NCBI RefSeq assembly: GCF_055900595.2
Contig: NZ_CM148325.1
Strand: one strand, 5' to 3'
Length of the DNA: 64,000 nucleotides
This document shows, piece by piece, positions 57,318 to 57,696 of this stretch (within the stretch, counting starts at the first letter, position 1; every line of letters begins with the position of its first letter). Position numbers and translations under genes: made by a program. The notes under the pieces are model-generated. The model made no database searches. It was not told the DNA's origin and worked only from the letters and a program-made list of their open reading frames with translations.

Positions 57318-57447
57318 AGACAAACCGCACCATAGCCTGTAATGCAAAAATCACCCATTCAGGTGATTCCCAGCCACCAGCAATGCGCGAAAAATCAACA
57401 ATGTTCCTCTGGAACAAATGAAACGTAACCTGATAAAGGTGGTAAAA

Positions 57448-57696
57448 ATGAAGCCTTATTTTGCTGCTTTGATGTTATCAGTCTCTGTCCTTCCTGCTTA
57501 TGCTGGTCCGCTCGGTACTGCTGATAAAGCCGACCTACCGCAAAGCAATGTCTCCAGCCCAATGATGGCCCAGTCGCTCAGGCAACCAGACCTGCAACCA
57601 ATATCGACGGACAGGAAAACAGAATGTTTTCGCCTTTACACACCAGATCGCAAACCGGGGGTGAACTGCGTTCCTGATGGCTCGACAGGCCATTAA
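57448..57696 (+). CDS. Small secreted protein with signal peptide (82 aa from the second in-frame ATG; ORF opens at 57418)
   Basis: ATG at 57448 has an aaggtgg RBS 5 nt upstream; MKPYFAALMLSVSVLPAYA looks like a signal peptide; may correspond to the small yjbT gene recalled at this position in K-12. Confidence 0.5.
   Translation: MKPYFAALMLSVSVLPAYAGPLGTADKADLPQSNVSSPMMAQSLRQPDLQPISTDRKTECFRLYTPDRKPGVNCVPDGSTGH

Follow-up and report, generated by a model that had tools for sequence, protein, structure and literature searches.

The heat-stable enterotoxin STa is made with a signal peptide of about 19 amino acids, a variable middle and a short conserved C-terminal segment containing Cys, of which STa has six. 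YjbT, the small protein considered here, has the layout of such STa-type pre-pro peptides, that is, a signal peptide, a variable middle and a conserved tail with Cys. It differs in that it has no sequence similarity to STa, two Cys rather than six and no conserved processing site, and in being encoded by a core gene on the chromosome, of which plasmids and phages have no true copies; nothing points to its secretion past the periplasm. In its leader yjbT resembles translational hairpins that sequester a Shine-Dalgarno (SD) sequence, RNA thermometers of the fourU or ROSE type among them, since its SD and AUG are predicted to pair with a U-rich segment further 3', the hairpin being of moderate stability and including G-U pairs; it differs in having no Rfam match, little predicted melting and a partner strand that is coding, and membership is not claimed. 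Finally, yjbT appears to share with known start mis-annotations the same kind of error, in which an upstream in-frame ATG is picked over a start served by an SD, although its case is built on comparison between genera and not, as in the known case, on profiling.

The nearest described system is YjbT of K-12 itself (b4620; Pfam PF17089), which has the same amino-acid sequence and the same locus between psiE and yjbH; the protein is no different, whereas xylE is absent nearby in the strain analysed here, and the K-12 database model starts 10 codons before the start favoured by comparative evidence. The literature that we found on yjbT, b4620 or PF17089 consists of a gSELEX table entry, a phenotype-marker table and an RNA-seq study. 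Directional RNA-seq of K-12 has b4620 transcribed in all seven conditions (PMC3734233). What we add to the database records is a comparative case for an annotated start ten codons too early, a constraint concentrated in the C-terminal 25 residues and a candidate SD-sequestering hairpin; our search, whose coverage of the literature was incomplete, returned no paper on any of the three. None of these points alters the understanding of such genes, and yjbT is a known gene of an ordinary kind, whose annotated start is likely to be off by 10 codons.

We propose the following picture, in which; 1) transcription of yjbT would start around 57396-57405, at a short 5' stem-loop (inverted repeat IR2), and end at a hairpin common to the convergent yjbH; 2) initiation would occur mainly at the second in-frame ATG (ATG2, 57448) by way of the strong SD AAGGTGG, and the first (ATG1, 57418) would be an Escherichia-specific in-frame ATG that falls in the 5' UTR of every other lineage; 3) an 82-aa precursor would be exported by Sec and cut after Ala19, between AYA and G, to give a 63-aa periplasmic protein; 4) the N-terminal half of this mature protein would be fast-evolving and probably disordered, and the last 25 residues would carry two Cys, 13 residues apart, in a disulfide loop presumably made by DsbA; and, 5) a hairpin between the SD/ATG2 region and codons 4-11 would probably keep translation low or gated.

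Identity and surroundings of yjbT

The window, by which we mean the whole 64,000-nt stretch of DNA analysed (contig NZ_CM148325.1), contains an open reading frame of 92 codons whose product is identical to UniProt YJBT_ECOLI over all 92 amino acids (coordinates of all features are collected in Table 1). The product matches the Pfam model PF17089 (YjbT, 'Uncharacterised protein family') with 217.7 bits (E = 1.4e-65, aligned over 1-92 of 92; gathering threshold 27 bits) and has no model in NCBIfam. The gene also lies where PF17089 is expected, between psiE and yjbH as in K-12, where its counterpart is b4620, complement(4239777..4240055), annotated with 92 amino acids from ATG1; RefSeq names the product 'periplasmic protein' or 'hypothetical protein'. 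Among 5,426 complete E. coli genomes the start region was found in 5,414, once in each, and in 4,677 of these its identity is 99% or more. The 14 protein variants within E. coli differ by scattered single changes only and are uninformative on the start. Some assemblies of E. coli and Shigella flexneri have frameshifted or fused variants (P0006, P0012, P0013, P0014 and P0020), which suggests occasional pseudogenisation or assembly errors. The gene yjbT is an already catalogued, uncharacterised and monocistronic one that is core in Escherichia. An earlier note, made from the window's letters, had presented it as of a type often missed or mis-started: missed it was not, and the second half of that statement has comparative evidence behind it. 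The same note had placed the gene upstream of yjbH, which is incorrect, as yjbH is on the minus strand and converges on yjbT.

Table 1. Positions in the window of yjbT, its parts and the elements around it
Feature	Position	Strand	Remark
psiE	56718..57130	-	
Inverted repeat IR1	57349..57368	+	AATCACC-N6-GGTGATT; right arm overlaps putative -35
Putative sigma-70 promoter	57367..57395	+	TTCCCA (57367-72), 17-nt spacer, AAAAAT (57390-95); placed from RNA 5' ends
Inverted repeat IR2	57402..57416	+	TGTTCC-TCT-GGAACA; at or near mRNA 5' end, directly 5' of ATG1
Annotated yjbT ORF	57418..57696	+	92 aa; ATG1 57418-57420, ATG2 in the same frame 57448-57450
ATG1 and 9 codons (annotated extension MKRNLIKVVK)	57418..57447	+	Probably 5' UTR; without SD
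Predicted hairpin enclosing SD, ATG2 and codons 1-11	57430..57481	+	Outer stem CUGAUAA (57430-36) with UUAUCAG (57475-81)
SD AAGGTGG for ATG2	57436..57442	+	Duplex -8.5 kcal/mol
yjbT CDS from conserved start	57448..57696	+	82 codons and stop; PF17089; start position of all non-Escherichia homologues
Predicted Sec signal peptide MKPYFAALMLSVSVLPAYA	57448..57504	+	Cleavage after AYA, before G; by sequence inspection
Variable Pro/Ser/Gln-rich half of mature protein	57505..57618	+	Residues 20-57; pN/pS 0.5-1.2 between genera
Conserved C-terminal 25 residues TECFRLYTPDRKPGVNCVPDGSTGH	57619..57693	+	Cys codons 57625-27 and 57667-69
Hairpin between convergent stop codons	57701..57739		46-nt gap; -21 kcal/mol
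yjbH	57743..59839	-	

The order malE-malF-malG-psiE-yjbT-yjbH-yjbG-yjbF is that of E. coli except for the missing xylE: the 3' end of malG and the malH sRNA region (56500-56719) join the 3' flank of psiE directly, where K-12 has about 1.8 kb with xylE between the malG/malH region and psiE, and the closest complete genome, NZ_CP098223.1, is arranged like the window. Between the stop codons of yjbT and yjbH the stem GGTGCCAGT/ACTGGCACC is followed on the plus strand by TTTCCTCT, and this hairpin is probably a bidirectional terminator; the terminator scan did not call it because its loop of 10 nt exceeds the 8-nt limit. Hairpins of different sequence stand 3' of the yjbT stop in the other lineages, in all of which the gene is monocistronic. 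The order psiE-yjbT-yjbH is kept in Kluyvera georgiana, Pseudocitrobacter and the overlapping contigs L011 and L012. In Buttiauxella and Shimwellia yjbT lies elsewhere, beside csbD, DUF2767, or abgT and a NUDIX gene, which gives no support to a functional connection with the yjbEFGH polysaccharide genes.

The two in-frame ATGs

We scored every plus-strand ATG of the window, 968 in all, by the pairing of its upstream sequence with the 3' end of 16S rRNA. The duplex before ATG2 has a predicted energy of -8.5 kcal/mol, within the top 1.7%, compared with -3.3 kcal/mol and the 29th percentile for ATG1, and the SD ends 5 nt 5' of ATG2. This bears out the description, in the earlier note, of a frame opening at 57418 with a second in-frame ATG at 57448 that has the better ribosome-binding site, aaggtgg. 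Homologues from two protein searches begin with M-[KRT]-x-Y-[FW] at the position of ATG2, and those of Kluyvera, Pseudocitrobacter, Buttiauxella, Shimwellia and further lineages all begin at its equivalent. There the SD has the form (A/G)AGGTGG in six of seven other lineages and GAGGGTG in the seventh (L011), with duplex energies in the relatives of -6.1 to -9.1 kcal/mol, and the block CTGATAAGGTGGTAAAAATGA is the best-conserved stretch in the whole upstream alignment.

ATG1, on the other hand, is confined to Escherichia, where it is kept in an open frame in all five species sampled, including E. coli, E. albertii and E. whittamii. No in-frame ATG stands at its position in the DNA of the non-Escherichia homologues; the triplet of K. 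georgiana is ATA, and an in-frame ATG that two lineages (L011 and L016) have farther upstream, at 21-22 codons from the start, is unrelated. ATG1 is in frame in Escherichia because of one extra A (ATAAAGG, against ATAAGG in the other lineages), a 1-nt indel in the interval between the two ATGs. The 14 nt 3' of ATG1 have no conservation between genera, and in Pseudocitrobacter, Shimwellia and one of the Buttiauxella lineages the frame, followed upstream from the start, meets a stop codon after 6-8 codons. An unconserved interval, an indel and stops in three lineages mean that the annotated extension behaves as 5' UTR outside Escherichia. Taken together, these comparisons suggest that ATG2 is the principal and ancestral start of yjbT and that the annotated start lies 10 codons too early, a reading to which we give a probability of roughly 70%. 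The earlier note's preference for the second ATG thereby gains comparative support, as every non-Escherichia lineage starts there with a conserved SD and cleavage motif. The K-12, RefSeq and UniProt model of yjbT would then probably have ten spurious N-terminal codons, a point that bears on signal-peptide prediction, the design of fusions and deletions and the interpretation of the 5' UTR. The predicted cleavage site is the same from either ATG and so, therefore, is the predicted 63-aa mature protein. In those supplementary files of Nakahigashi 2016, Giess 2017 and TRAINSPOTTER that the search covered, yjbT or b4620 was not found.

Folding of the leader complicates this reading for E. coli. 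The SD and ATG2 are predicted to pair with codons 4-11, GGUGG with CUGCU and AAAAUG with UAUUUU, and the mean probability of being unpaired from SD to AUG is 0.09 in the yjbT of the window, where malG and malE have values of 0.37-0.43; predicted values of 0.09-0.18 are obtained in six of eight lineages. A 61-nt segment with the hairpin has a minimum free energy of -13.6 kcal/mol (z = -2.4; 5 of 200 shuffles fold as well), and the hairpin is recovered in seven of eight lineages when each is folded alone. Over nine sequences 87% of its cells are paired, which 1 of 500 column shuffles attains, against 42-72% in slid controls, and four pairs have a compensatory change (a level reached by 29 of 500 shuffles), for example C:G to U:A in Pseudocitrobacter and U:A to A:U in Buttiauxella; these statistics are modest, as they come from about seven independent lineages and from an alignment that overlaps conserved codons, with one strand of the hairpin coding. 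The data are thus suggestive of a hairpin conserved as a structure, and this may be why Tyr4-Phe5 of the signal peptide are unusually well conserved. With SD and ATG2 paired in this way, translation would probably be held low or gated. A covariance-model search of the 5' region against Rfam gave nothing over 57396-57481, its only matches being sub-threshold ones to the REP-derived naRNA4 at 57228-57375. An RNA thermometer, whose SD would have to open up from about 30 to 42 °C, is not supported, as the predicted probability of being unpaired goes from 0.08 (30 °C) to 0.10 (42 °C) and hardly shifts from 20 to 50 °C.

The predicted hairpin weakens a simple conclusion of ATG2 only for E. coli. In the fold ATG1 is open (probability of being unpaired about 0.8) and the SD and ATG2 are closed (0.02-0.15), and ATG1 could therefore be used in Escherichia. 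One possibility is that both starts are used there, with ribosomes loading independently of an SD at the 5'-proximal ATG1 and their translation opening the hairpin, so adding to or enabling initiation at ATG2. Besides the predicted accessibility of the one ATG and pairing of the other, the arrival of ATG1 together with the 1-nt insertion that put it in frame would be consistent with this, as would the identical mature product of the two precursors. However, its basis is structure prediction throughout, and other lineages with the same hairpin manage without ATG1, so that we regard such dual initiation as unlikely.

Less likely again, in our estimation, is that the annotation is right as it stands, in which case Escherichia would start at ATG1 and make a 92-aa precursor with a long and highly basic n-region (MKRNLIKVVKMK), ATG2 being an internal Met. 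The retention of ATG1 in frame in the five Escherichia species, its predicted lack of structure alongside the sequestered ATG2 and SD, the RNA 5' ends upstream of it and a Pfam model that covers residues 1-92 could all be cited for this reading. Yet by our own estimate an open in-frame ATG 10 codons upstream arises by chance in about 1 case in 5, and the N-terminal positions of the Pfam model probably mirror the annotations of a seed that we assume to be mostly Escherichia. Moreover, ATG1 is without an SD and its -3.3 kcal/mol is unremarkable among the ATGs of the window, its leader would be only 7-22 nt long and folded into IR2, and the extension is missing from all other genera, with an interval that evolves like non-coding DNA. 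A start at ATG1 would also leave a perfectly conserved, strong SD 5 nt before ATG2 without a purpose. We therefore keep ATG2 as the principal start in what follows.

Constraint, predicted export and distribution of YjbT

For a Sec signal peptide we looked, by inspection, for a basic N-terminal residue, a hydrophobic core of 10-15 residues and small residues at -3 and -1. From ATG2 the protein has MK, the core PYFAALMLSVSVLP and AYA before G, and the same pattern recurs in all ten aligned members of the family, with AYA, VFA, AHA, SYA, AFS, CYS or CYA as the cleavage motif. No twin-arginine motif was seen in the signal peptides of the aligned members. A lipoprotein was rejected: there is no lipobox of the form L-[AS]-[GA]-C, around the cleavage region no Cys is seen in E. 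coli or most relatives, and in Buttiauxella and Shimwellia, which have A-P-C-Y there, the Pro at -1 is incompatible with a lipobox. An 82-aa product with a signal peptide, a Pro/Ser-rich mature region and a Cys-containing tail, as the earlier note had described it, is thus what we also find, in that the Sec-type N-terminus and cleavage motif recur across the family and the 63 mature residues include 8 Pro and 6 Ser, with Cys60 and Cys74 (82-aa numbering) in the tail.

The two halves of the mature protein evolve differently (Table 1). Against the relative L002 the last 25 codons have 18 synonymous and no non-synonymous differences, and against K. georgiana 14 and 1, respectively, which gives a pN/pS of 0.00-0.02 with these two relatives that share the tail, at near-saturated synonymous divergence. 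Outside the start region, the residues invariant among ten aligned members are T58, C60, P70, G71, N73, C74, P76 and D77, and the tail follows the motif T-x-C-[FY]-x9-P-G-[VIL]-N-C-[VI]-P-D, in which the Cys are arranged as C-x13-C. Conservation of the reading frame had been put forward in the earlier note as a check, and the C-terminal codons are indeed under strong purifying selection between genera. From the substitution pattern it follows that the gene is under selection as a protein and that the selected part is the C-terminal loop bounded by the two Cys. AlphaFold2, run on a shallow alignment of ten sequences, gave a mean pLDDT of 57 and a pTM of 0.14, with the signal helix as the only secondary structure, and a profile search of PDB sequences with the family had no match at E ≤ 10. 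We infer that mature YjbT is a disordered linker followed by a small, disulfide-stapled tail. Judged from the sequence comparisons, the tail is most likely the functional part of a small periplasmic protein that acts through a disulfide-bonded loop, and it is here that YjbT should be mutated.

The family is small, with 14 proteins in a search of 5.8 billion sequences, 13 when 1.84 billion representatives were searched exhaustively with a profile, five loci among 100,044 species genomes and four true loci in 241 million metagenome records, the last with a motif pattern designed to exclude Escherichia; a scan of metagenomes with a degenerate form of the C-terminal motif added one new sequence variant only. 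Among the sources of the family are Escherichia spp., K. georgiana, Pseudocitrobacter, Buttiauxella and Shimwellia. A search for phage copies had no match, and the records behind six matches labelled as plasmid, at 0.65-4.9 Mb, are whole or split chromosomes. In three near-identical metagenome contigs (L024, L026 and L028) the motif is matched by an ORF ending in GRPGVNCVPDNHW, which we take as a chance match, as it lacks a signal peptide and is in all else dissimilar to YjbT.

That the ORF is a chance or decaying frame and not a functional protein gene, as the lack of a known function, the tiny family (13 matches among 1.84 billion representative proteins) and the frameshifted copies in some E. 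coli and Shigella might suggest, is so improbable as to be effectively refuted by the codon substitution pattern, which over the C-terminal 25 codons has 18 synonymous changes between genera and no non-synonymous one, and is opposed also by the conservation of SD, start, signal peptide and terminator, the presence of the start region in nearly all complete E. coli genomes and transcription in all conditions tested.

The region upstream of the start

The 5' ends of b4620 assembled from RNA-seq of K-12 correspond to 57396-57411 of the window in four of seven conditions (PMC3734233, supplement), although these are approximate, as read assembly is not specific for transcription start sites. They lie 7-22 nt upstream of ATG1, so near that a would-be ribosome-binding site of ATG1 would be inside the IR2 stem-loop. 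The putative sigma-70 promoter placed in front of these ends matches the consensus at 8 of 12 positions, which is below the scan threshold, and a consensus sigma-70 scan upstream of yjbT called none. A -10-like hexamer with 4-5 of 6 matches lies 5-9 nt before a conserved GTTCC in five of eight lineages; K. georgiana reaches no more than 3 of 6 in the same range, and the best hexamers of B. izardii are farther off, with ends at 11 and 16 nt.

About 100 nt of upstream DNA travels with yjbT, and the two inverted repeats in it are conserved in eight lineages, also in those with other genes next to yjbT. IR1 has an ATCAC core that is invariant in the eight lineages, a predicted RNA fold of -7.8 kcal/mol and 85.7% of cells paired. 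IR2 folds with -5.8 kcal/mol; all eight lineages keep its GTTCC unchanged and 44-48 nt 5' of ATG2, and its loop has 3 to 5 nt. Covariation in IR1 and IR2 was not significant. As palindromic operators the two repeats are a weakened proposal, the variable lengths of their spacers counting against it, and a CRP-like reading of IR1 fails on half-sites in the wrong orientation. A sigma-E promoter (GGAACTT-N16-TCAAA) was likewise rejected, the spacing being wrong: 11 nt separate GGAACAA (57411-17) from CCTGA in E. coli and its GGAAC counterpart from TCTGA in Kluyvera, against the 16-nt sigma-E spacer. Transcripts started from such a promoter would, moreover, lack the SD.

The hairpin at the SD and the two inverted repeats are testable candidate regulatory elements for a gene without known regulation. 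A bolder version of our picture would have YjbT as a pre-pro-peptide whose 25-residue disulfide loop is active, for example as a ligand or inhibitor of an envelope protein, and whose synthesis is gated by the SD/AUG hairpin and the two inverted repeats, with ATG1 opening the hairpin in Escherichia. We consider this version a long shot.

Two further features overlie the same DNA. REP-type repeats stand between psiE and yjbT (57228-57375), where the sub-threshold naRNA4 matches fall on both strands, and a 631-nt query over them is found at a median of six places per E. coli genome. On the minus strand, at 57274-57417, the RefSeq/PGAP annotation of many E. coli genomes has a 'hypothetical protein' of 47 aa (WP_000487760.1), which is unannotated in K-12. 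Its ORF overlies REP copies and the putative promoter, IR1 and IR2 of yjbT, its DNA is unconserved outside Escherichia, and it is probably a spurious call.
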